Part shown: piece by piece, positions 22,598-33,631 of the stretch
Layout of the letters: every line of letters begins with the position of its first letter
How positions within the stretch are numbered: the first letter of the stretch is position 1
Source: an uncultured Pirellulaceae bacterium
GTDB lineage: Bacteria; Planctomycetota; Planctomycetia; Pirellulales; Pirellulaceae
Assembly: GCA_964418725.1 (NCBI GenBank)
Contig: CAYQMZ010000004.1
Span: 1-33,631 of the forward strand
Direction of reading: 5' to 3'
Length of the DNA: 33,631 nucleotides
Translations under genes and position numbers: made by a program
Notes under the pieces: model-generated
The model's input: only the letters and a program-made list of their open reading frames with translations
Databases searched by the model: none
What the model was told of the DNA's origin: nothing

Positions 22598-23386
22598 ATG
22601 GATATCGTGAAGGACTCGCTAATGAAGAAGACAAGGATTTCGACCCTCGTATGGGTAATGGCGTTCGTCAGTGTTGCCAACTCAGCGACTATTGATTTTG
22701 AGCCTACCGCGACGGATACATTTGAAGACAACATCGTGTTTCCCGCGGGAACGGTTGGTGGTGTTACCTACCGGTTCGGCGTGGATGTAGACGCCGATGG
22801 CCTGATCGACTTTCCGGCAAGGCTTGAGCAGCGCGGTAGCGACTCGATCAACGCGTATACACTTGGAAGCGTTGAAGACGACGCAGACTTGGACACCAGC
22901 GTGTCAGGCGGGGAGTGGCTGTTACGTCGCCCTAAGATTACCGAAGAAGGCGCGACGAATAACCTAGATGTAGCCATGGTCTGGGAGTTAGCCACAAAAT
23001 CGCTCCAGCCGCTTTCATCAGTCGGAGGTCAAATCTGGGACGTAGACCTGGGCGAAGAGTTCCTCATCACATTGACGCGACCAAGCGGTGACCTGATTCA
23101 GTCACTGACACTTCCGGTTGGTACCGCCGAAGGTCGTGGTTCCGCAACGAGCTTTCAGTTCGATGAACTCAATGACGCGACTTCCGTGAAACTGAGTGTT
23201 CGCCTACTGAGTGCAGGTCAGAATGCTGGCGGATATGGAATTGACAATGTCACTTTCACGCTGGTACCTGAACCGGCCTGGCCGTCGTATGTCTTCTTGC
23301 TTTTTACCAGTGCCATGTTGCACTGCGGACGTGTGAGGGTACGTAATTATCGTCATATGACTTTCGCAGCAAAAACTCCTCAGTGA
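22598..23386 (+). CDS. Secreted PEP-CTERM-type sorting-signal protein with uncharacterised beta-sandwich-like ectodomain
   Basis: The N-terminus has a signal-peptide shape, MKKTRISTLVWVMAFVSVANSA|T, so the likely true start is ATG 22622. The C-terminus is NVTFTLVPEP-AWPSYVFLLFTSAMLHCG-RVRVRN: a VPEP motif (23264-23275), then a ~17-aa hydrophobic helix, then a basic cluster. That is the PEP-CTERM architecture. Confidence 0.7.
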   Translation: MDIVKDSLMKKTRISTLVWVMAFVSVANSATIDFEPTATDTFEDNIVFPAGTVGGVTYRFGVDVDADGLIDFPARLEQRGSDSINAYTLGSVEDDADLDTSVSGGEWLLRRPKITEEGATNNLDVAMVWELATKSLQPLSSVGGQIWDVDLGEEFLITLTRPSGDLIQSLTLPVGTAEGRGSATSFQFDELNDATSVKLSVRLLSAGQNAGGYGIDNVTFTLVPEPAWPSYVFLLFTSAMLHCGRVRVRNYRHMTFAAKTPQ

Positions 23387-24575
23387 TTGAAACTAGTCGA
23401 ACGACTTTGCGGCAAGCATTGAAGAACGGGATCACGGGAATGATCAGGCAGATGATTAGATCTTCATAGAAGTGTTGACTGTGTGCCAGTATCAATAAGG
23501 ATTGGAATAGGTGGAGTACAAACACGATGAGATACGTCGCAGTGGTCAGCCACAGTAGATCTTGCGGTGTTTGCAGCACTAGGGATATCCAATAAAGGAA
23601 AATCGAGTAGGTGCAAAAGATCTGAAAGAACCAGCAGTTCATCAAGCACAAGAGATTACTAACGCGAAAATTGCCGTACCAGAAGAATGCCAAGTCGACG
23701 TGCTTGCGGCATTTGTAACGGACGGCGCCACGATTCCATCGGCGACGTTGTTTGAGGAAGCTCAGAAGCGTCGCGGGCACGTTTGTGAAGCCGTAAGCAT
23801 GCGGTTCGAACGCAACTCTATAGCCGGCTTTTCTCAGGCGTAGTGTGAGATCCCCATCTTCACCTGGCCCCACGTCCCAACCGCCAATGGAACGCACCGC
23901 TGCGCTTCGAAATGCACTAAAGCCACCGGAAGCAACAACCAACATGTCAAACTTGTCGGCAAGTTGCCGTCCCATGAAAATGCTGTTGGCATACTCGAAT
24001 GCTTGGCACCAAGTTACGATGCTTTCAAACGGATTCCGAACACGAAGCGTAGCCGAAACGGCGCCAACCCATCGATTTCGAAATGGCTGGACGATGCGAT
24101 AGATCGCGTCGCTACGCAAGTGAGAATCTGTATCCGCGATTACGAGTACGTCGGCTGACGTGTAGTTTAGAGCTAGATTTAGCGAAGACGATTTGCCGCC
24201 ACGTTGCGGGCGACTGAGTGACCTAATAAAGCCGTATTGTTCCTGCAGTTTTTCGAGGATCTTCGCCGTACGATCAGTGGAAGCATCGTTGACAACGATA
24301 ATCTCTAGTTTGGGATAGGTCGCGACAATAGACTCCACCGTTGCCCGAATCGTATCCTCCTCGTTGTAGGCAGAAAGCAACACCGCAACGGTCGGCAAGA
24401 ACGGCTCAGTGGATTCTGCTCGATAACGCCAAACGCCCGACAAGCTCTCCCAGAAGACACAAACAAATAGCTTCAAGGCTGTGTATCGAGCACCATCGAT
24501 GAGCAACGTTGCTCCAAACAGTGCCCAAAGTCGCTCCGGATTAAGGCTGAACAGCCAATGCAAAACTTCGGACAT
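23304..24575 (-). CDS. Membrane-embedded processive family-2 glycosyltransferase (PgaC/IcaA/NodC/BcsA/Alg8-like polysaccharide synthase)
   Basis: This is a 423-aa ORF with an ATG start. It has an N-terminal TM helix and GT-A motifs: VVNDASTDRT, IADTDSHL, GGFSAFR, PGEDGDLTLRLRKAGYRV and FLKQRRRWNRG (the Q(Q/R)xRW processivity motif). About 4 C-terminal TM helices follow. Size and topology match PgaC/NodC-type synthases; the sugar polymer is unknown. Confidence 0.85.
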   Translation of the reverse strand: MSEVLHWLFSLNPERLWALFGATLLIDGARYTALKLFVCVFWESLSGVWRYRAESTEPFLPTVAVLLSAYNEEDTIRATVESIVATYPKLEIIVVNDASTDRTAKILEKLQEQYGFIRSLSRPQRGGKSSSLNLALNYTSADVLVIADTDSHLRSDAIYRIVQPFRNRWVGAVSATLRVRNPFESIVTWCQAFEYANSIFMGRQLADKFDMLVVASGGFSAFRSAAVRSIGGWDVGPGEDGDLTLRLRKAGYRVAFEPHAYGFTNVPATLLSFLKQRRRWNRGAVRYKCRKHVDLAFFWYGNFRVSNLLCLMNCWFFQIFCTYSIFLYWISLVLQTPQDLLWLTTATYLIVFVLHLFQSLLILAHSQHFYEDLIICLIIPVIPFFNACRKVVRLVSITEEFLLRKSYDDNYVPSHVRSATWHW

Positions 24576-25426
24576 TACGGTTGCGGCTGAAGTGACGAAG
24601 TTTGCTCTCTACCAACCGGGGCAGCAATACAATGCGTGTCCACTCGGCGCCATTCGGAGATTCGCTCCCAGTTAAACGATCGAGTTCTGTACGTGGGAAG
24701 CCGAACGGTTGGGGCATCCCTTGGTGAGAATGTAGTACTACAGCCGATGCAGTGGCCAAACAGTTCAACCTCGTCCATCTTGTGACCACACCGACAGCAG
24801 ACCTGGCGACCCGCGAGCAACTCAAAGTCAACGCCCACAACAAGATCTCGGGCACTACATTTTGGACATGCGATCGTGTCGCCATCTTGGAATTCGCACT
24901 GCGGCGCGACTGCCGCGCAACGATAGTGATGAATTAACGTTTGCTCCGTTACATCCGACGATCCACACACACCACAGCCGACCGATAGGTTTGGTAGATC
25001 TCTGCAATGCGGACAGACGACCAACTGACTTTCGTGTGCACGAGTTAACGCACCGCTGGCTAAACCTAGGCGAATAGCGGTCGGAGTAACGGGCCACCGA
25101 GTGACTCCCGATTCGTATGTTGCCGCGACAATCGGCGATGCCAACAACTGTTCGTACGCCCCGGAAGTGCTGCATCGCATTTCGATTGGGGTGGTTGAAG
25201 TTGACACGGAGGTAACTTCCACGGCGATGAAGCCTAGGCTTGTATTCTGCCCTAGAACTTCCAATATCCCCGGCACACCGGATGCCAATCGTGAACGTCG
25301 CGATGCGGTAAGGACGACGTGTGCGCGACTGAATCGATCAAGAGAGACGCTCTCGCATAGGCACGAATCCTCGGGCCTCAGGGGAATGTGCCAAAACCGT
25401 CCATACTGTGCATTGAATTGTCGCAT
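24575..25426 (-). CDS. Cys-rich multi-zinc-ribbon protein of unknown function (five CxxC pairs), translationally coupled to the GT2 synthase
   Basis: This is a 283-aa ORF with an ATG start at 25426. Its C-terminal half contains CPHC..(10)..CGVC, IHHYRC, CPKC..(20)..CCRC and CIGC, at roughly nt 24720-24985. Its TAA stop (24577-24575) shares one base with the GT2 ATG (24575-24573), giving TAATG. It starts only 10 nt after the upstream MFP stop. Confidence 0.7.
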   Translation of the reverse strand: MRQFNAQYGRFWHIPLRPEDSCLCESVSLDRFSRAHVVLTASRRSRLASGVPGILEVLGQNTSLGFIAVEVTSVSTSTTPIEMRCSTSGAYEQLLASPIVAATYESGVTRWPVTPTAIRLGLASGALTRAHESQLVVCPHCRDLPNLSVGCGVCGSSDVTEQTLIHHYRCAAVAPQCEFQDGDTIACPKCSARDLVVGVDFELLAGRQVCCRCGHKMDEVELFGHCIGCSTTFSPRDAPTVRLPTYRTRSFNWERISEWRRVDTHCIAAPVGREQTSSLQPQP

Positions 25427-25436
25427 CGGCTAACAC

Positions 25437-27071
25437 TCAATCCCGCGTAGCTGGTCGTGTCTTGAAAGACCAGTGGCTGGACGTCGTGGCCCATAGGCTT
25501 GAAAATTCGCTGTCACGAATCGCCGAAGTCCACGTGCGTTTCATCACAACCGTTGAGGACAGAGGTAACTTGGCCAGCCCTTCTGCGGCGGAAGCGTCAG
25601 GCCTGAGTCGAATGAGTGCGAGTTTTCTTCCACTCCAAAAGAAGTTCTGCAAATTCGCCGGAGGGTGTTGAAGCTGCGGATCGACGTTGACCACTTGGCA
25701 AACGCATCTCTGCCCGGTCGACGAAATGAACACGTTTGCGTCTTGATTCTCGCGGATGCGATTCAGCTCCTTGCTGGACAAGTACAAGTCGATCGTTAGC
25801 GAATCATCTTCGAGCAGAGTTACCACGGGGGAAGTCTCATCGACTGCTTCGCCGACGAACTCGTAGCGACGTACGACGACACCACTCACGGGAGCACGAA
25901 CTTGGCATCTGCTTAGTCGATCCCCGATTGTCGCCAAATCACTGTCGATGGCGGAGATTTTCGCGTCGTATACTGCCGCGATTTGGGTGTCAGACTCAGT
26001 AGACACCGCGATCTGCGATCGCTCGCGCAGCGCAACCAACCCCTTTAGCTCTTGGGCCAAACTGTCACGATAGAATCGTTCTCTGATTACCGTGCGTTTG
26101 AGATCTTGTAGCGGCGCAGCGTCGGTTCGAGCGAGCGATGCTTGCATTTTGCCTTTTTCTTCGAGCACCGACAGCTTGGCCTGCTGTTGAATCAGGTCAC
26201 TCCAAGCCGAGTTGAACTCAGCCTGATAACGAAGCTGCTCCGCGCTACGGGTAGTTCGCCTTGCTTCAGTCTCTGCAAGCTTGAATGCCCTTTCCGCACA
26301 CACGATCGCACGCTGTTTCGTAAGCCGCTCACTCTCAGCCAACAACTCATCGCTACGAATGCTGAATAACAGATCACCCTGCTTCACTCGACTTCCAACA
26401 GCAACGCAAAGTCCCTGCATTGTGCCTTTGATCGGCGGCTGGACATCAATTAGTCGCCCAGTAGTCTCGCCATAGCCCACGTAGCGAAGCCTAGCGTCCC
26501 AAACCGAGTAGAAGAAAATCCCGATCGCTATTAGCAGGGCCAAGCTAACGAGACGCTGTGAAAACCGCCGCGTGGCCACTCCTTTGTCTCGCGGGACGTC
26601 GTAGCCAGTCGCTCTTTGCTTGGTTACCACACCTGCCGATCTTGCTGCGTCGCGACTGACCTTCAAGTGTTTCTCTAGCAACTCGGCCGGCGCAACGGAC
26701 GCTCCCTCGAGGGGAATGACCTTGACGAATTCGCTTTGCAAACGCGGACGGTCGGTATCGGGGTTCTTCGCCACGATTAAGACCGGTGTCCCGGTATCTG
26801 CCGCGAGAAGTTCGACCTGTTCTAACAGGTTTTTCTCGATACGAAGCAGCAAGAAAACCGCCGCGTCGAACCTGCCCGTAGAAAGTTCAAACAAGGCAAC
26901 GTCCGGCGACGCGGCATAGTGGAACACCCAACCAGGACGTTCGGGCTCGGCGACTTCGCACCGAACCAATTCATCGCATACGATAACTCGCACCATCACT
27001 GTCTCGCCGAACTCTGAGGATTCGGGAAAGTGTACCCGCGCGAATACTCGGAGCTTGGCGTGCCACGACAA
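25437..27071 (-). CDS. Receiver-like (probably pseudo-receiver) domain :: TM helix :: HlyD-family membrane-fusion/periplasmic adaptor protein
   Basis: The track ORF is 544 aa and starts at TTG 27071. ATG 26996 (MVRVIVCDE...) is a likelier start and gives 519 aa. Residues 26-125 have a CheY-like beta/alpha pattern (VRVIVCDE, FDAAVFLLL, TPVLIVAKN, FVKVIPL). A TM helix, LVSLALLIAIGIFFYSVW, lies at about 26499-26552. The HlyD hallmarks follow: GRLIDVQPPIKGTMQGLCVAVGSRVKQGDLLFSI (lipoyl-like hairpin), about 170 aa of coiled-coil, then CQVRAPVSGVVVRRYEFVGEAVDETSPVVTL and a beta-barrel. Confidence 0.8.
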   Translation of the reverse strand: MSWHAKLRVFARVHFPESSEFGETVMVRVIVCDELVRCEVAEPERPGWVFHYAASPDVALFELSTGRFDAAVFLLLRIEKNLLEQVELLAADTGTPVLIVAKNPDTDRPRLQSEFVKVIPLEGASVAPAELLEKHLKVSRDAARSAGVVTKQRATGYDVPRDKGVATRRFSQRLVSLALLIAIGIFFYSVWDARLRYVGYGETTGRLIDVQPPIKGTMQGLCVAVGSRVKQGDLLFSIRSDELLAESERLTKQRAIVCAERAFKLAETEARRTTRSAEQLRYQAEFNSAWSDLIQQQAKLSVLEEKGKMQASLARTDAAPLQDLKRTVIRERFYRDSLAQELKGLVALRERSQIAVSTESDTQIAAVYDAKISAIDSDLATIGDRLSRCQVRAPVSGVVVRRYEFVGEAVDETSPVVTLLEDDSLTIDLYLSSKELNRIRENQDANVFISSTGQRCVCQVVNVDPQLQHPPANLQNFFWSGRKLALIRLRPDASAAEGLAKLPLSSTVVMKRTWTSAIRDSEFSSLWATTSSHWSFKTRPATRD

Positions 27072-27106
27072 TGTTGAGGGAATACCAGATCAGGCCGATC
27101 TGAAAT

Positions 27107-27841
27107 TCAAACGCTTGCTCGCCGGAATGAAACTTCTATGGCAACAGCCTTTCCGCCCGCAGCATGCGTCACAGAAAAATCGGTGCCATGCAATGCGGCG
27201 AACTCGGCAAGCTTAGCAAAGTGAAAACTGGACGTCGTTGAACTTCTGTCACTACTTGTTTCGATCAAGTCGTGAACCAGCGAGAACTGAACGTCTTGAT
27301 CTTGAACGTGTAGGTTGCAAGCCACCGAGAATTCGGGCGGCGTTTGTGCGAGCGTCCCGGAAATAAGACTGATAAACAACTCCGTGGTGAGAGTTGGATC
27401 GGCACGAACAAGCAACTCAGTCTCTGGCACACGAAGCGCCAGTCGACTGGTATCGACGTGGGACGAGTACTCTAACGCATCGGCAACGCACCTAGTGAGA
27501 TCGCAACTCGCTATCTGACCTGGATCTCTAGCTTCATCGTATTCCAATGAGTTGCTGAGCACTCGGTCCAAGTATTCGGTAATCCTCTCGATTTTGTCGG
27601 AAGTTCGGCTGATTGATTGACGTGTGGCTTCGGTCGACGTTCGCCCAACTCTCAAATTGTTCTGCAGGATCCATACGAAGCCCAAAAGTGCCTGCAGCGG
27701 GTTACGTAGGTCATGGGCCAGATACCTGAGGTTGGATTGATCTAGCCTAGTAGATTCGAGATCAAGGGAAACGGCATCGTAGTCTTCAACGCATGGTTGA
27801 GTGGGCATCGCATTCGTCCTGAAAAGGTGATCATCGTCCAC
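27107..27841 (-). CDS. Soluble HisKA-domain histidine-kinase-like protein with degenerate HATPase_c (pseudo-kinase / phosphotransfer protein)
   Basis: The ORF is 244 aa with a GTG start at 27841 and an alternative ATG at 27808. The H-box LAHDLRNPLQALLGF is intact. The downstream ~120 aa has the kinase CA-domain length and secondary pattern. By my by-eye alignment the N-box reads ISLISGTLAQ (no Asn), G1 reads VHDLIETS (no Gly) and G2 reads SSFHFAKLAEF in place of GxGLGL. There is no TM segment or sensor domain. Confidence 0.7.
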   Translation of the reverse strand: MDDDHLFRTNAMPTQPCVEDYDAVSLDLESTRLDQSNLRYLAHDLRNPLQALLGFVWILQNNLRVGRTSTEATRQSISRTSDKIERITEYLDRVLSNSLEYDEARDPGQIASCDLTRCVADALEYSSHVDTSRLALRVPETELLVRADPTLTTELFISLISGTLAQTPPEFSVACNLHVQDQDVQFSLVHDLIETSSDRSSTTSSFHFAKLAEFAALHGTDFSVTHAAGGKAVAIEVSFRRASV

Positions 27842-27958
27842 CCACTAGATCGCGAGAGAATTGTCGATGTGCAATTCGCGCGCAATCTTTTTCAAGAATC
27901 TTGGCGACAGCAAGCAAGCAGTGGCGAATTCACGATCACCACCTGAGCTGCTTCTCAG

Positions 27959-29740
27959 CTACTTTTTGACTTGGAACGCAATGGATTGAATGTCTCCGTC
28001 GCACTCTTCTTCTACCCAGCGAATCAAGTCAACAAACGGTTCCGTATTACGCGTTCTAATTTTGTCGCCCCTCTCAACCAGCGACGACACTTGCCTGACA
28101 GCGGAACCCACCGATATCCATACTCCAGTAAGACTACTGTCGCCGGTCCACCCCGTGTCTGATGGTGGGTCGGCACTCCAACTATCCCATTCTTCAATCG
28201 GTTGCTGGCTGCGAACTAGGATAAATGCCTGCACGCCTTTGCCTTCGTTGAGACAAAAAAAGTAGTCTTTGTCTTCGGGAAACACGAACTTCTCAACCTT
28301 GCTGTCCGATTCAGCCAAGAACTGCAATGTCCCATTCGTATTCGCAGCAATTAGCGAACAGTATGTCGGAGTCAGAGACTGATGCGATATCGTTACGAAA
28401 TCTCCATCACGTACGACAAACTCCGAATGGCCAACAGAACCTAGCAACGAAAGGCTGTCGTCCGCGATATCTGCTCGATATGCGTTCAACGTTAGCCGTG
28501 AGGTAACGTTTGCCGAATCCGTGACCGTCCGCGCAGTCACTGACGGAACGAGTGTCGCCCAAACACCTGCCAAGACAGCCAAACCGGTCAACAGGCATCC
28601 AACTTTGGCTAGCAGTCCAACTCTAGTGGGCGTATAGATTAGCTTGCCCTCGTCGCAACTTTGATCGACGGGAAGATTTTCAATTGCACGTTGCTCATTC
28701 GCCCAACGCTCCAATGCGTCGCGGAAACTCTGTGCTGTTTGAAATCTGTGTTGCGGCTCTGCCTTGACTGCCTTCAGACATATTCGATCCAATTCTTCAT
28801 CCACCTCTGGCCGATAGTCACGGCATCTACGTGGTGGTTTTCGAATCGCGTCTGGAGACGAACCGTACGGTCTTGTACCGGTTAGCAGTTCGTAGAGCAT
28901 AACGCCCAATGAGAAGAGGTCGCATAGAAACAATGACTCTACAGGCGACTCACCAAAAAGCTCCGGCGCCATATAGCCAGGTGATCCCAAACCGTAGTGT
29001 GTGTCGTCAGTACGCGACGCCAAACCAAAGTCAACCAACAGCACACGGTCTTCTTCGAGCAGAACATTGCTCGGCTTCAGGTCGCGATGAGCTATTCCCC
29101 GCGAATGCAACTCGGCCACCGCATCTAGCACCTGCAACATGATGTCTACAGTACGTGCAGGCGACAGACTGGGCGGCGTGCGACAGTGTTTTTTCAATGC
29201 ATCGCCGTTGACTAATTGCATTGCCACGAAGGGAAACGGTCCTATTTCTCCCAGTCCATAGATGGCAACACAATTGCGATGATCAATACGTGATAGGACT
29301 TTGCCCTCGCGAATAACTTCGCCTTTTGGCGAAAATGGCACCTTGATCGCGACGCTCCGATTGAGCGACAACTGCTTTGCCTCGTATACGACTCCAGTTC
29401 CACCTCGCCCGATTTCACGAATGAAATGGAAGTCCCCGGATTTGGCCGGCAAGCTTCCCAGTTCATCGGAAACTGGGCAGTAGCACTCGACGAAGTTGGA
29501 AAGTGCGGCAGTGGTAACCTTGTCAATATTGTCCGATAGACTGGGGAACTCTTGCTTCAGCAAACGCGGGGCGTCGAATCGTCCTCTTTTGAACTCGTTT
29601 TCTGCATAGACACCGGCAAGTTCAACAAGCCAGTCGCGACTGACTTCCACGCCAAGCGAGTCAACGAATCTCGAAATTGATACTTCGTGATCCTCTTCCA
29701 ACACCTGCTCAAATTCGAGTAGTAAGTCGGCTAGTCTCAT
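27959..29740 (-). CDS. Transmembrane Hanks-type Ser/Thr protein kinase with C-terminal extracytoplasmic domain (DUF4384-like)
   Basis: This is a 593-aa ORF with an ATG start. Kinase motifs are IGRGGTGVVYEA (P-loop), VAIKV (catalytic Lys), HRDLKPSNVLL, LVDFGLA and GSPGYMAPE. A TM helix, VGLLAKVGCLLTGLAVLAGVWATLV, follows. The ~190-aa C-terminal domain contains VVRDGDFVTISHQS...YCSLIAANTNGTLQFL...FVFPED...GVQAFILVRSQQPI, which resembles DUF4384 as I remember it. Confidence 0.85.
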   Translation of the reverse strand: MRLADLLLEFEQVLEEDHEVSISRFVDSLGVEVSRDWLVELAGVYAENEFKRGRFDAPRLLKQEFPSLSDNIDKVTTAALSNFVECYCPVSDELGSLPAKSGDFHFIREIGRGGTGVVYEAKQLSLNRSVAIKVPFSPKGEVIREGKVLSRIDHRNCVAIYGLGEIGPFPFVAMQLVNGDALKKHCRTPPSLSPARTVDIMLQVLDAVAELHSRGIAHRDLKPSNVLLEEDRVLLVDFGLASRTDDTHYGLGSPGYMAPELFGESPVESLFLCDLFSLGVMLYELLTGTRPYGSSPDAIRKPPRRCRDYRPEVDEELDRICLKAVKAEPQHRFQTAQSFRDALERWANEQRAIENLPVDQSCDEGKLIYTPTRVGLLAKVGCLLTGLAVLAGVWATLVPSVTARTVTDSANVTSRLTLNAYRADIADDSLSLLGSVGHSEFVVRDGDFVTISHQSLTPTYCSLIAANTNGTLQFLAESDSKVEKFVFPEDKDYFFCLNEGKGVQAFILVRSQQPIEEWDSWSADPPSDTGWTGDSSLTGVWISVGSAVRQVSSLVERGDKIRTRNTEPFVDLIRWVEEECDGDIQSIAFQVKK

Positions 29741-30144: not shown

Positions 30145-30681
30145 ATGCAGAATTCGATTTCAGTATGCGGGTGGGAATTTATGCCACAAACAAACGGTTC
30201 GGCAGATTCAGTCTGCGACAAAAAAGTCGTCCTCATCGATGATGATGAAGTCATGATTGAAATCGTTACTCATCTACTTAACGAAGCTGGGTTCTCGAGG
30301 ATCCATAGCTTCATGAAGTCTACCGAAGCATTGGAAGAGCTCCGCTACCTGAAGCCCGACGTGATCATCACCGACATTCACATGCCTCACCTAAGCGGAA
30401 CGTTTCTTGCCAAATTGGTCAGCGACTTTCCGCAGCTAAATGCCGTGCCCTTATTGGCCATGACCGCTGACGACTCCCACGAAACGCGAGACTTGGCACA
30501 AAAGAACGGATTCTTCGATATCGTTTACAAGCCCATCAATGCCGGAACACTACTTGCAAAGGTCTGCACTGCGATAGCGATTGGAGATCACAGCAAGCGA
30601 GTTCGAGCCGAACTACGCACCTCAGCGGCAGCCGATACGTCAGTGCAGGAAGGCGTCGTTTTCGACCTCTTTCGCAGATAG
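30145..30681 (+). CDS. Stand-alone CheY-like response regulator (receiver domain only, canonical catalytic residues)
   Basis: The ORF is 178 aa, with an alternative ATG at 30181. Receiver residues are all present: VVLIDDDE (acidic pair), DVIITDIHMP (phospho-acceptor Asp), LLAMTAD (Thr) and VYKPI (Lys-Pro). A short C-terminal tail follows, with no DNA-binding domain. Confidence 0.85.
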   Translation: MQNSISVCGWEFMPQTNGSADSVCDKKVVLIDDDEVMIEIVTHLLNEAGFSRIHSFMKSTEALEELRYLKPDVIITDIHMPHLSGTFLAKLVSDFPQLNAVPLLAMTADDSHETRDLAQKNGFFDIVYKPINAGTLLAKVCTAIAIGDHSKRVRAELRTSAAADTSVQEGVVFDLFRR

Positions 30682-30771: not shown

Positions 30772-32259
30772 CTAAGGACGCGATCCCGGCGTCATATAAC
30801 AAAGGTGGTAGAGTTGAAAAAGGGAACTCTCGGCCCGCCCCCCTTGTCGCTTTAGATGTTCTTGAGCCGTCTCAGTCCTGACATTGCTGAAGCCCATATT
30901 CGATAGCCAGGCGGTTGGGTCTCGCACGCCAAAAACAAACTCTTCGCCGAGCCGTTCCATGGCGGAGAAAAAGGCATTTGCCTCAGGGTACGCGGAACTT
31001 CGATCCAAGACCGCCTGATCGACGAAGTCACACCAGACAATCGATTCGGGGTGCCCCAAAACTTCTCGCAGTGATGACAGAATGCTCTGATTGTCCTGCT
31101 CGTCGAAATACATGGAGCAACCTTCGTAGACGGCAATCGTCTTGGCCGAAGGAACGAATCCATTTTTCAGTAGCTGTTCACCGATATTTTGACGGGTGAA
31201 GTCTGCTGGAATGCAGTAGCGGTTAGCCCCATGCAATCGTCCAGATTCGACTACCCGGTCGCGCTCCGACAACATCTCAGGCAGATCGAGCTCGAAGATA
31301 CGAATACCGGGTTCCAAGCGAAGTCGATACGGACGCATGTCTAGTCCGGCGCCAACGAGCACCAGCTGCTCAAGGTCGCCATGACATCGAATCACCTGAT
31401 CGACGCTCTCGGTGCGAGCCCTCACAAACTGACCGAGCTGAGGAAGTTTCTTACTCAGCTCTTGCGCCAACAGGCGACCGTGTGGCCCCGCAGCCAAATC
31501 ATCAAAACACACGTTGGGCGGATCGACTCGATGCCTTCGACCATCACCTCGTTGAAGCGAGTCAGTCGTTCGAGATTCCGGATTCGCGTACGTCGCGCTG
31601 CGATACTCCCGAGACAATCGTGCTCGTATGCCTGCAATCATGCGAGCTGACGCCTTCAGTTTTTGTGCTGCATGAGTCGACAACCCACCTTCCCCCGCCT
31701 CCTGCAAAGATCGTGTGGACTGTAGAAAGTACCTTCCTTCACCGGAGGCTACCTGTTCTCCATTGGAGAAAAAGTTGATCTCTAGCGTTACGAGGCAGCG
31801 TTTTCCCCGTTCGTATCGCTGACGAATCTTTGAGATCAAATCGGAAGGGACTCTGCACTTGCCATATAAATGTCCAGTGCTTGGCTTCAAGTATCTCATT
31901 TTCAACCCAACGAGCCACAACGATGCTGAAGTCTCGGGGTGACACGGATGGATTCCAGCTAAAGGAATGCCGGTCAATACAGTGGTTAGCGCCATTCCGC
32001 CGGTGTAGTCGGCAGACAACGCGATGATGGCGGCTTGGTGAGTTCCATGCTGATTTGTCGTTTCGTGATTCAAGGGCAACAAGGTCTCAGCGTAGCCAAA
32101 TTCCGTCGAGACGATCTTCCAGTTCGTCGCCCTGAGAGCGTGCACCGAGTTGCGTGCCAATCGCGTCATGTAGTCCGGGTGAATCCGACTTTCCCAATCA
32201 GACTTGAGTTCCTGTTGCCGGGTGAACGTTAGCGCTGCATTTGCGTCAGGGCGTATCAT
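30772..32259 (-). CDS. Fusion protein: N-terminal hotdog-fold (PaaI/4HBT/YiiD_C-like thioesterase-type) domain + C-terminal class I SAM-dependent O-methyltransferase of the LCMT / mycobacterial Omt-like family
   Basis: This is a 495-aa ORF with an ATG start at 32259. The N-terminal ~190 aa reads ...NQHGTHQAAIIALSADYTGGMAL...LWLVGLKMRYLKPSTGHLYGKCRV...CLVTLEINFFSNGEQVASGEGRYFL, a hotdog pattern. The C-terminal ~230 aa has LVLVGAGLDMRPYRL (the GAGLDTR motif I of the LCMT-like family), IFELDLPEM and IAVYEGCSMYF. Confidence 0.65.
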   Translation of the reverse strand: MIRPDANAALTFTRQQELKSDWESRIHPDYMTRLARNSVHALRATNWKIVSTEFGYAETLLPLNHETTNQHGTHQAAIIALSADYTGGMALTTVLTGIPLAGIHPCHPETSASLWLVGLKMRYLKPSTGHLYGKCRVPSDLISKIRQRYERGKRCLVTLEINFFSNGEQVASGEGRYFLQSTRSLQEAGEGGLSTHAAQKLKASARMIAGIRARLSREYRSATYANPESRTTDSLQRGDGRRHRVDPPNVCFDDLAAGPHGRLLAQELSKKLPQLGQFVRARTESVDQVIRCHGDLEQLVLVGAGLDMRPYRLRLEPGIRIFELDLPEMLSERDRVVESGRLHGANRYCIPADFTRQNIGEQLLKNGFVPSAKTIAVYEGCSMYFDEQDNQSILSSLREVLGHPESIVWCDFVDQAVLDRSSAYPEANAFFSAMERLGEEFVFGVRDPTAWLSNMGFSNVRTETAQEHLKRQGGRAESSLFQLYHLCYMTPGSRP

Positions 32260-32606: not shown

Positions 32607-33631
32607 TCAGATGCCGCTGTCGGGCTGGAGATTTCTCGACACGACACGCGTAATCTCAGCCGCCAAGTACTCCCCCATCGACTCATCACGAGATCGAATC
32701 TTCGCAACTCCCATTTCTCCTGGTAAGAGATCGAATTCAGCTTTCGCCCGTGGAGCCAACGCGACTTCGACGTGGGGGCGAAGGAACTTCAAACCCTCGA
32801 TGCTCTCTTGAGTTCTAGACAGGTCGTCGGACGCAAATCGCTTCTCACCCTGCGCTGAATCCATCACAGGCAATGGCCCACTGTTGCTGGCGGCGAATGC
32901 CGGGATCTGAATTATCTGTGATGCTCTAGGTGGAATCTGGCTAACGCTACATTCCAGCAACTTACCGACTTGCCCCCAAATCCGAGCCGTGACTTTTGGC
33001 TGTTTCGCTGATCGAAGCCATTTCGCCTCGTCTTGGTCGACAAGGCCAATCAGTTTCGGACGCTCGCTGGAACCGACTTCCATGATCTCCATGCCAGGTT
33101 GAGCGAACATCCCAAGCTTTGAGTCCAGCTCAAATGTCGAAACTGTTCCTGCGATCGGTGCGCGGATGACCAACCGATCAATCAGATCGCCAAGCTCTTT
33201 CACTCGATCGGCAATAACGTCTATTCGATCCAACTGCTTCTGCAATTCAGCAATTTCTCCGTTCGCTTCAAGGCTCCGAGCTTTCAATTGCTCCGATTCC
33301 AGTTGAAGCTTTGTTGCGACGTGCTCTTGCACCAATTCTGTGTTGCGAAGAACAGCCAAAGGTTGATGCTGACCTACCTGCTGGCCGGTGCCCACAAATA
33401 TGCGGTCTACGAATCCATTCGCTTCAGCTCGTACAACTACCAAATCGTCGTATTTGACGATGACAGGAAACGTTATGGCGGCTGGGGCCGGCACAAAGAG
33501 GAGAATTCCCCAGACGCACGCCAACAATAGGGTTGTGGTCAAGCAGAATCGAAGTCTATTCACACCGGACGTTTTGTTTCCACCAACCAGGTACACGCAC
33601 AATCGGCATAGCGGTACGACCAACCAGAACA
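32607..33631 (-). CDS. HlyD-family / RND-type periplasmic adaptor (membrane fusion protein), N-terminus uncertain and possibly beyond the right edge
   Basis: The track ORF starts at TTG 33623, but the frame stays open to the window end. Features are a TM helix (LLLACVWGILLFVPAPAAI), VVVRAEANGFVDRIFVGTGQQVGQHQPLAVLRN (lipoyl-like), a coiled-coil (LQLESEQLKARSLEANGEIAELQKQLDRIDVIADRVKEL), then VIRAPIAGTVSTFELDSKLGMFAQPGMEIMEVG. Confidence 0.7.
   Translation of the reverse strand, partial: FWLVVPLCRLCVYLVGGNKTSGVNRLRFCLTTTLLLACVWGILLFVPAPAAITFPVIVKYDDLVVVRAEANGFVDRIFVGTGQQVGQHQPLAVLRNTELVQEHVATKLQLESEQLKARSLEANGEIAELQKQLDRIDVIADRVKELGDLIDRLVIRAPIAGTVSTFELDSKLGMFAQPGMEIMEVGSSERPKLIGLVDQDEAKWLRSAKQPKVTARIWGQVGKLLECSVSQIPPRASQIIQIPAFAASNSGPLPVMDSAQGEKRFASDDLSRTQESIEGLKFLRPHVEVALAPRAKAEFDLLPGEMGVAKIRSRDESMGEYLAAEITRVVSRNLQPDSGI

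Follow-up and report, generated by a model that had tools for sequence, protein, structure and literature searches.

The subject of this analysis is a stretch of 33,631 nt (hereafter the window) from an uncultured Pirellulaceae bacterium (assembly GCA_964418725.1, contig CAYQMZ010000004.1, positions 1 to 33,631 of the forward strand), and within it a module of three adjacent genes encoding a membrane fusion protein (MFP), a protein that places a TackOD1 domain behind a PilZ-like barrel, and a membrane glycosyltransferase of family 2 (GT2). The module is probably a regulated synthase-type polysaccharide machine in which the TackOD1 protein acts as the regulatory subunit. The conserved unit, across Planctomycetota, is the MFP, the TackOD1 protein and GT2. 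The original prediction for this DNA had drawn a larger unit that also took in two kinase-like genes upstream, and had proposed that phosphorylation controls the synthase in place of cyclic di-GMP (c-di-GMP).

All five genes of that prediction lie on the minus strand of the window between 23304 and 29740, and their coordinates and junctions were borne out by a check of the open reading frames (ORFs). In transcriptional order they encode a Hanks-type serine/threonine kinase (STK; 27959-29740, 593 aa; Pfam Pkinase, E 4e-41), a protein with a Pfam HisKA domain (27107-27841, 244 aa), the MFP (25437-27071, 544 aa from a TTG start, with an alternative ATG at 26996; Pfam HlyD_3 and HlyD_D23), the TackOD1 protein (24575-25426, 283 aa; Pfam TackOD1) and GT2 (23304-24575, 423 aa; Pfam GT2 families, E 2e-30). 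The successive junctions measure 117 nt, 35 nt (110 nt from the ATG of the MFP), 10 nt and a 1-nt overlap. The TackOD1 protein and GT2 are translationally coupled: the stop codon of the former shares the sequence TAATG with the start codon of the latter in the window, and the called genes overlap by 44 nt in relatives (L001 and L004-L009). A scan for consensus sites was uninformative: promoter-like sites numbered one where 5.5 were expected, and terminator-like sites were about as frequent as expected.

Conservation was assessed in 136 related loci (1.38 Mb), in which all six-frame ORFs were scanned with hidden Markov models (HMMs) built from the family alignments. A genome collection scanned with a peptide pattern of TackOD1 yielded 46 loci, exclusively from Planctomycetota, and 80 more came from a metagenome scan. 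The triad is present in all 46 genome loci, whose carriers include members of the Pirellulaceae, Bythopirellula, Gemmataceae and Phycisphaera and, among cultured strains, Novipirellula rosea JCM 17759, Novipirellula sp. SH528 and Rhodopirellula maiorica SM1. It is likewise found in seven of seven distinct loci reached through GT2 or MFP homologues, amid flanks that are otherwise unrelated, and MFP, TackOD1 and GT2 genes follow one another in this order in every GT2-derived locus with enough sequence (L001, L002, L004, L005-7, L008 and L009). Among 124 non-redundant TackOD1 genes, 64 are accompanied by at least 2.5 kb upstream and at least 3.5 kb downstream; a GT2 of the family lies within 3 kb of 62 of these 64, an MFP of the family is present at 58, and 52 have the same-strand order MFP, TackOD1, GT2. 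The remaining loci are permutations (TackOD1, MFP, GT2; TackOD1, GT2; or a divergent GT2). An exhaustive search of representatives (E<=1e-3) recovered 1438 TackOD1 cluster representatives at 50% identity. Two loci (L078 and L080, 5148-8540) contain a 1131-codon stop-free frame with a TackOD1 match that overlaps the MFP gene in another frame, in which one should probably see an artefact of calling ORFs from stop to stop where DNA is GC-rich, not a real fusion.

The GT2 carries the GT-A motif set of processive membrane enzymes of its family (D, DxD, (T/G)ED and Q(R/Q)xRW) in the form of NDAS96, D148xD150, GEDGD238 (with the ED at 239-240) and QRRRW276. In 34 members of the family D97, D148, D150, D240, D242, Q276, R277, R279 and W280 are invariant, and three hydrophobic C-terminal helices are predicted after the GT domain, at about residues 316-387. 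The 842 homologues found at E<=1e-20 have lengths of about 427 aa and identities of 41-52%, and their named sources are Planctomycetota. The best NCBIfam match is PgaC_IcaA (TIGR03937, E 1e-45), at 156.4 bits against an equivalog cut-off of 422.3; other matches, among them NodC, HpnI and MftF, reach at most 94 bits and are all below cut-off, and the CelA model scores 38 bits against a cut-off of 699. Assignment of GT2 as PgaC, NodC, CelA or another named exopolysaccharide (EPS) glycosyltransferase was rejected on these scores, all of them far below the curated cut-offs, and neither the window nor the conserved block of the relatives contained a PgaD/IcaD, PgaB/IcaB or PgaA partner. When the family profile was compared with the PDB, the highest scores were those of PcManGT (6yv7, 120 bits), HAS1 (88 bits), Cv-HAS (64 bits) and BcsA (56 bits), and the alignments to HAS1 (residues 104-368) and Cv-HAS (residues 66-356) reach the channel-forming transmembrane (TM) region. 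From its sequence we infer GT2 to be a processive membrane synthase-translocase of the BcsA/HAS/PgaC superfamily. Beyond the last TM helix, residues ~396-423 (window 23304-23390) form a conserved tail, E..R.S..D...P..VR..TW.W, in which the final W is invariant, and this tail is a candidate partner-binding motif.

The protein encoded between the MFP and GT2 is recognized by Pfam as TackOD1 (PF18551; 81.5 bits against a cut-off of 32, E 7e-23), so that the zinc ribbon with five CxxC pairs noted in the original prediction belongs to a family that already has a name. The domain covers residues 123-247 (24686-25060, minus strand) and profile positions 61-187 of 188. Its putative ligands (C138/C141, C151/C154, H166/H167/C170, C187/C190, C210/C213 and C226/C229) point to about three Zn sites, and the Cys and His of the five CxxC pairs and the HHxxC motif are invariant in alignments of 49 and 88 sequences. 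The protein has no predicted TM helix and is taken to be cytoplasmic. A word-index search, too insensitive for distant homologues, matched it only to one 99% identical copy.

The original prediction saw no PilZ domain at this locus, which holds for motifs and HMMs but not for alignment and predicted fold. Residues ~1-90 of the TackOD1 protein (25157-25426, minus strand) form a putative PilZ-like beta-barrel, and relatives' canonical PilZ domains (RRxxPR ... DxSxxG) align with its first ~85 aa. An AlphaFold2 (AF2) model from the 88-sequence alignment (pLDDT 88, pTM 0.73) places a beta-barrel at residues 7-86, and PilZ domains rank first in a Foldseek comparison of the model with the PDB (4xrn, 4i86, 8u0i, VCA0042 and the BcsA PilZ 9b8v_E, the last at an rmsd of 2.0 over 81 columns); the TackOD1 part of the model found no PDB fold match in Foldseek. 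The protein begins MRQFNAQYGRFWH, just before the barrel and without an RxxxR, and RFSRAH stands at the position of the relatives' DxSxxG. Relaxing the Pfam threshold to E<=10 brought no PilZ (PF07238) match for the protein, and its N-terminus matched nothing meaningful when PDB sequences were searched. Both PilZ motifs are lost in the same way in the closest relative (P0124; 38% identity), where, on a 2.6-kb contig, the gene lies downstream of one for a 494-aa MFP, and degenerate PilZ motifs are also seen in the Novipirellula and Rhodopirellula copies. The window protein is most likely a PilZ-fold::TackOD1 protein in which c-di-GMP binding has been lost. Because both binding motifs are gone, this copy is probably blind to c-di-GMP, and it is probably either constitutive or under some other control.

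The relatives reveal how widely the inputs to TackOD1 differ. An eight-member alignment has the architecture of an optional REC, a PilZ with the consensus RRxxPR ... DxSxxG, a linker and TackOD1. The pattern RxxxR...[DN]x[SA]xxG occurs upstream of TackOD1 in 29 of 49 genome-derived proteins, 30 of 88 library representatives and 10 of 64 metagenome proteins, compared with about 2 in shuffled controls, and Pfam REC is found in 21/49, 17/88 and 20/64 of the same sets. A C-terminal GGDEF fusion is present in 13 of the 64 metagenome proteins (Pfam). Fusions of this kind adjoin a GT2 of the family in L110 and L123 (TackOD1-GGDEF) and in L121 (REC-TackOD1-GGDEF), and a separate GGDEF gene is inserted between TackOD1 and GT2 in L056, L057, L059, L062 and L065. 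Because TackOD1 is fused to canonical PilZ or GGDEF domains, or has a GGDEF gene set beside it, the family appears to be wired to c-di-GMP, and the proposal that a phospho-signal stands in for c-di-GMP is wrong for the family as a whole. As PilZ, REC and GGDEF vary beside TackOD1, the latter is the constant element and the signaling domains are the variable inputs. Where a phospho-input is present, the domain arrangement indicates that it enters through a REC on the TackOD1 protein and not on the MFP. The acceptor Asp is kept in the REC of L012, L027, L015 and L004 5882-7138 and is replaced by Gly in that of L004 8800-10044 (DAILLGL), L016 1409-2698 (DAVLLGI) and L038 5891-7444 (DAVLVGL), so pseudo-receivers also occur within the TackOD1 family. 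The Bythopirellula genome has a second, divergently oriented REC-PilZ-like-TackOD1 paralogue directly upstream of the module MFP (L004 5882-7138, minus strand, which equals L036 3225-4547).

The third member of the module, the MFP, has one predicted TM helix (residues 170-188) followed by a periplasmic region of coiled coil and barrel-sandwich, and its Pfam matches agree with the initial description as an HlyD/MFP protein; NCBIfam matches to the RND_mfp, EmrA and HlyD subfamilies are all below cut-off, and DevB is matched as well. Its orthologues are the MFPs of the other modules, with which it has 20-29% identity and the signature RPKGR...W..FRY.AYG..GR in common. Used as the single query of a metagenome scan, the window MFP found no relative, and no stretch of DNA carrying a further extended MFP was recovered; a word-index search, again too insensitive, gave two weak matches only. 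The window protein is distinguished by a cytoplasmic, lineage-specific N-terminal extension of ~150-165 aa (residues 1-165; 26577-27071, minus strand) that is absent from six aligned orthologues. The frame is stop-free and its GC content by codon position (0.66/0.43/0.64) is like that of the adjacent genes, which indicates coding sequence. This extension had been read as a receiver-like domain, a reading that HMMs do not support. It has no Pfam match at E<=10 (REC, PF00072, and PilZ included) and no PDB sequence match, hhalign against a REC alignment gave a probability of 6.9%, and a single-sequence AF2 model of the whole MFP (pLDDT 38) was too low in confidence to judge the N-terminal domain, so that a receiver-like character is at most a tentative reading. 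The hhalign register is plausible (FDAAVFLLL against YDxVLLDL; TPVLIVAK against PVVVLT) and aligns a Leu to the acceptor Asp, which therefore excludes classical His-Asp phosphotransfer.

Two other explanations of the locus have to be weighed. In one, all five genes are a single operon and the Hanks kinase and/or the HisKA pseudo-kinase act on the receiver-like N-terminus of the MFP, replacing control by c-di-GMP. The layout lends itself to this explanation: the genes are co-directional, neither the 117-nt nor the 35-nt gap contains a convincing terminator-like site, and the unique, coding extension of the MFP comes directly after the kinase pair and can be aligned with REC in a plausible register. 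The loss of both c-di-GMP motifs from the window PilZ makes another input plausible, and the MFP of the closest relative (P0124) is likewise long, at 494 aa. Both kinase-like proteins are much as initially described, the STK being a transmembrane Hanks kinase (one predicted TM helix at residues 374-392 in addition to the Pkinase match, then an extracytoplasmic C-terminal domain without assignment) and the HisKA protein lacking a recognizable ATP-binding domain (HisKA at 32.2 bits against a cut-off of 26.9, with the H-box AHDLRNP present, and no Pfam match to HATPase_c at E<=0.01). The explanation is nonetheless judged unlikely. Across the 136 related loci (0/136), nothing homologous to the STK, to the HisKA protein or to the MFP extension stands as an adjacent, co-directional upstream neighbor; phmmer found no homologue of the HisKA protein or of the extension (queried as the N-terminal 175 aa) anywhere in these loci, and the STK has two matches only (L070 and L092), each some 2 kb downstream of GT2 and encoded on the opposite strand. 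From these phmmer and HMM scans it follows that the three-gene block is conserved and the five-gene block is not: of the conservation expected in the original prediction, that of the MFP, the zinc ribbon and GT2 stands, and that of the STK and the HisKA protein does not. These two proteins are neighbors outside the conserved module. Planctomycetota encode many Hanks kinases, and adjacency of one is for that reason weak evidence for phospho-gating. The lack of a REC match and the Leu at the acceptor position of the extension also speak against it, and the HisKA protein has a more obvious partner in the canonical CheY-like REC encoded divergently at 30145-30681. A lineage-specific rewiring, in which the window lineage lost both PilZ motifs and gained the MFP extension beside the kinase pair, is possible. 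It is distinctly improbable that in this lineage a Hanks kinase/pseudo-histidine-kinase input on the new cytoplasmic MFP domain has replaced the lost c-di-GMP input, with TackOD1 as the synthase-docking regulator; if true, this would be the first Ser/Thr-kinase-gated synthase-dependent EPS system. Any regulation of the module by the STK, the HisKA-only protein or the extra N-terminal domain of the MFP is speculation. A reading of the STK as part of an anti-phage defense system was rejected, because the PADLOC matches are only generic kinase ones.

The other explanation denies that GT2 exports a polymer at all, and would have it make a short oligosaccharide or glycosylate a lipid or lipid-linked glycan, while the MFP serves in efflux of a glycolipid or small molecule, as DevB does. 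This is very improbable. It can appeal to PcManGT as the best PDB sequence match, to NodC, HpnI and MftF among the sub-cut-off NCBIfam matches of GT2, to the DevB, EmrA and RND adaptor subfamilies among those of the MFP, and to a module in which neither an outer-membrane porin nor a polymer-modifying enzyme is found, as had been remarked of the cluster from the beginning. However, the Q(R)xRW and ED motifs do not vary and the GT domain is followed by TM helices, PgaC/IcaA leads the family matches by a wide margin (156 bits against at most 94), the HAS1 and Cv-HAS alignments run into the channel-forming region, and among the genes of the conserved block there is no ABC, RND or MFS pump with which the MFP could pair. 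Gating by c-di-GMP and PilZ is, furthermore, typical of EPS synthases.

Several observations also weigh against a synthase gated by TackOD1 and should be kept in view. The loci were sampled with two peptide patterns and are dominated by Planctomycetota. Two of the 64 well-flanked TackOD1 genes (L103 and L030) are without a family GT2 within 3 kb; in L030 a divergently oriented copy lies just over 3 kb upstream of TackOD1, and in L103 none is found within 8 kb. The best PDB sequence match of the GT domain is a minimal archaeal mannosyltransferase (6yv7), so that the processivity of GT2 is putative. The Foldseek E-values for PilZ are weak, at 0.015-0.1 with none at or below 0.001 (probability 1.0; TM-score to target 0.49-0.64), and no outer-membrane component is seen in the module. 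Finally, TackOD1 is reported from Thaumarchaeota as REC-TackOD1 response regulators and at type IV pilus loci (Galperin et al. 2018, PMC5847659), and the domain may thus not be specific to synthases everywhere.

In the preferred reading, that of a polysaccharide synthase regulated through TackOD1, GT2 would polymerize a nucleotide-sugar and thread the chain through its own TM channel, and the single-pass MFP would extend the conduit across the periplasm, roles suggested by family membership. Synteny and domain fusions point to the cytoplasmic TackOD1 protein as the regulatory subunit of GT2. Its constant part, the putative three-zinc domain, may dock on the synthase complex in the manner of the PilZ of BcsA and Alg44, and the attached domains would supply the inputs, PilZ as a c-di-GMP receptor, REC for phosphorylation and GGDEF for local synthesis of c-di-GMP. 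The arrangement would follow the logic of Alg8/Alg44 with the PilZ and MFP halves of Alg44 on separate proteins and the zinc domain as the coupler. Two loci have genes of sugar metabolism directly downstream of TackOD1, a UDP-glucose/GDP-mannose dehydrogenase in L086 (8493-9899) and such a dehydrogenase together with an NAD-dependent epimerase/dehydratase in L103 (8723-11216), which hints at a uronic acid or modified sugar in some versions of the polymer.

The combination of GT2, MFP and zinc ribbon matches no named EPS locus, in agreement with the original prediction (GT2 again at 156 bits against 422), and the verdict reached here is that the module is an undescribed variant of the PilZ-gated synthase-dependent polysaccharide systems, with a "split Alg44" logic. 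Alg8-Alg44 of Pseudomonas, polymerase and c-di-GMP co-polymerase for alginate, resembles it in joining a membrane GT2, a single-pass HlyD/MFP-type protein and a cytoplasmic PilZ, and in a post-translational control by c-di-GMP, which is to be expected for the module family. In Alg44, however, PilZ is fused to the MFP, whereas here it sits on a separate soluble protein, fused to TackOD1. Where Alg44 has its PilZ the module MFPs have only a tail, and the window MFP has the unassigned extension, in which no PilZ match was found. The module also differs in having no TPR (tetratricopeptide repeat) protein or porin of the AlgK/AlgE type and no modifying enzymes, and the window PilZ in having no binding motifs. 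BcsA combines a processive GT2 bearing QxxRW with a PilZ barrel, features predicted here as well, and its PilZ is among the best structural matches to the window barrel, but the PilZ is fused to the synthase, the periplasmic partner is BcsB and not an MFP, and the similarity of the GT2 is weak (56 bits). PgaC/IcaA, of PgaCD and IcaAD, is the nearest curated GT2 family by sequence and is similar in size and TM layout, and PgaCD is directly activated by c-di-GMP. It differs in its score, 156 bits against a cut-off of 422, and in its partners, as the module has the MFP and TackOD1 and none of PgaD/IcaD, PgaB/IcaB and PgaA. Minimal pairs of GT2 and MFP under c-di-GMP control are represented by BgsA-BgsB (mixed-linkage glucan) and the cyanobacterial XcsA-XcsB, in which c-di-GMP is sensed by the synthase itself; to our knowledge no TackOD1 partner has been described for either. 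The degenerate-GGDEF c-di-GMP receptors PelD and PssE are comparable as dedicated cytoplasmic signaling proteins beside a synthase, which recalls the TackOD1-GGDEF fusions beside a family GT2, though they differ from these in architecture.

In the published account of TackOD1 the function of the domain is called "obscure", and its occurrence "in some bacteria" is noted (PMC5847659). The REC-TackOD1 proteins of Thaumarchaeota have the same Pfam domain with five CxxC and an HxxC, often downstream of REC, but the bacterial fusions to PilZ and GGDEF and the near-obligate neighborhood of GT2 and MFP are not mentioned there. No mention of TackOD1 or PF18551 beyond that paper was found in the literature searched, nor was the combination of PilZ, zinc ribbon and glycosyltransferase, and a PilZ-TackOD1 fusion is not listed in a review of PilZ architectures. 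An orphan "output domain" since 2018 (PMC5847659), TackOD1 gains its first functional context from the conserved module. Its neighborhood (62 of 64) and its PilZ, REC and GGDEF partners lead to the hypothesis that it is an adaptor through which second-messenger or phosphorylation signals reach a specific polysaccharide synthase. The module is compact and self-contained, and apparently widespread in the Planctomycetota, whose surface polysaccharides, holdfasts and biofilms are ecologically important and genetically poorly mapped. It offers a natural comparison, as a "split Alg44", for how PilZ signals reach GT2 synthases, and the motif-less PilZ of the window together with the degenerate copies of Novipirellula and Rhodopirellula would be candidate natural loss-of-binding variants.

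The remaining genes of the window surround the module on both sides. The stand-alone CheY-like receiver (30145-30681, plus strand) has the canonical residues (DDD, the D in ITDIHMP, T and KP) and is transcribed divergently from the STK; it is plausible as the partner of the HisKA protein and an equally good candidate. Beyond it lies a SAM (S-adenosylmethionine) methyltransferase of the TIGR00027/LCM type with a YiiD-like thioesterase domain at its N-terminus (30772-32259, minus strand). On the other side, a gene on the plus strand (22598-23386) is convergent with GT2, the 3' end of which it overlaps by 83 nt; at the C-terminus of its 262-aa product a PEP-CTERM-like sorting signal (VPEP, a hydrophobic helix and RVRVR) gives a weak NCBIfam match (E 0.002). 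Downstream of GT2, a stop-free frame of at least 7448 codons (1-22346, minus strand) runs off the start of the window, with an N-terminal DUF4347, 19 RTX nonapeptide stretches and Big_9/cadherin-like, F5/8 type C and Calx-beta domains, and its product is a giant adhesin-like protein, possibly exported by type-I secretion. A second HlyD-family adaptor at the window edge (32607-33623, minus strand), unrelated to the MFP of the module, is possibly linked to secretion of this giant RTX protein.

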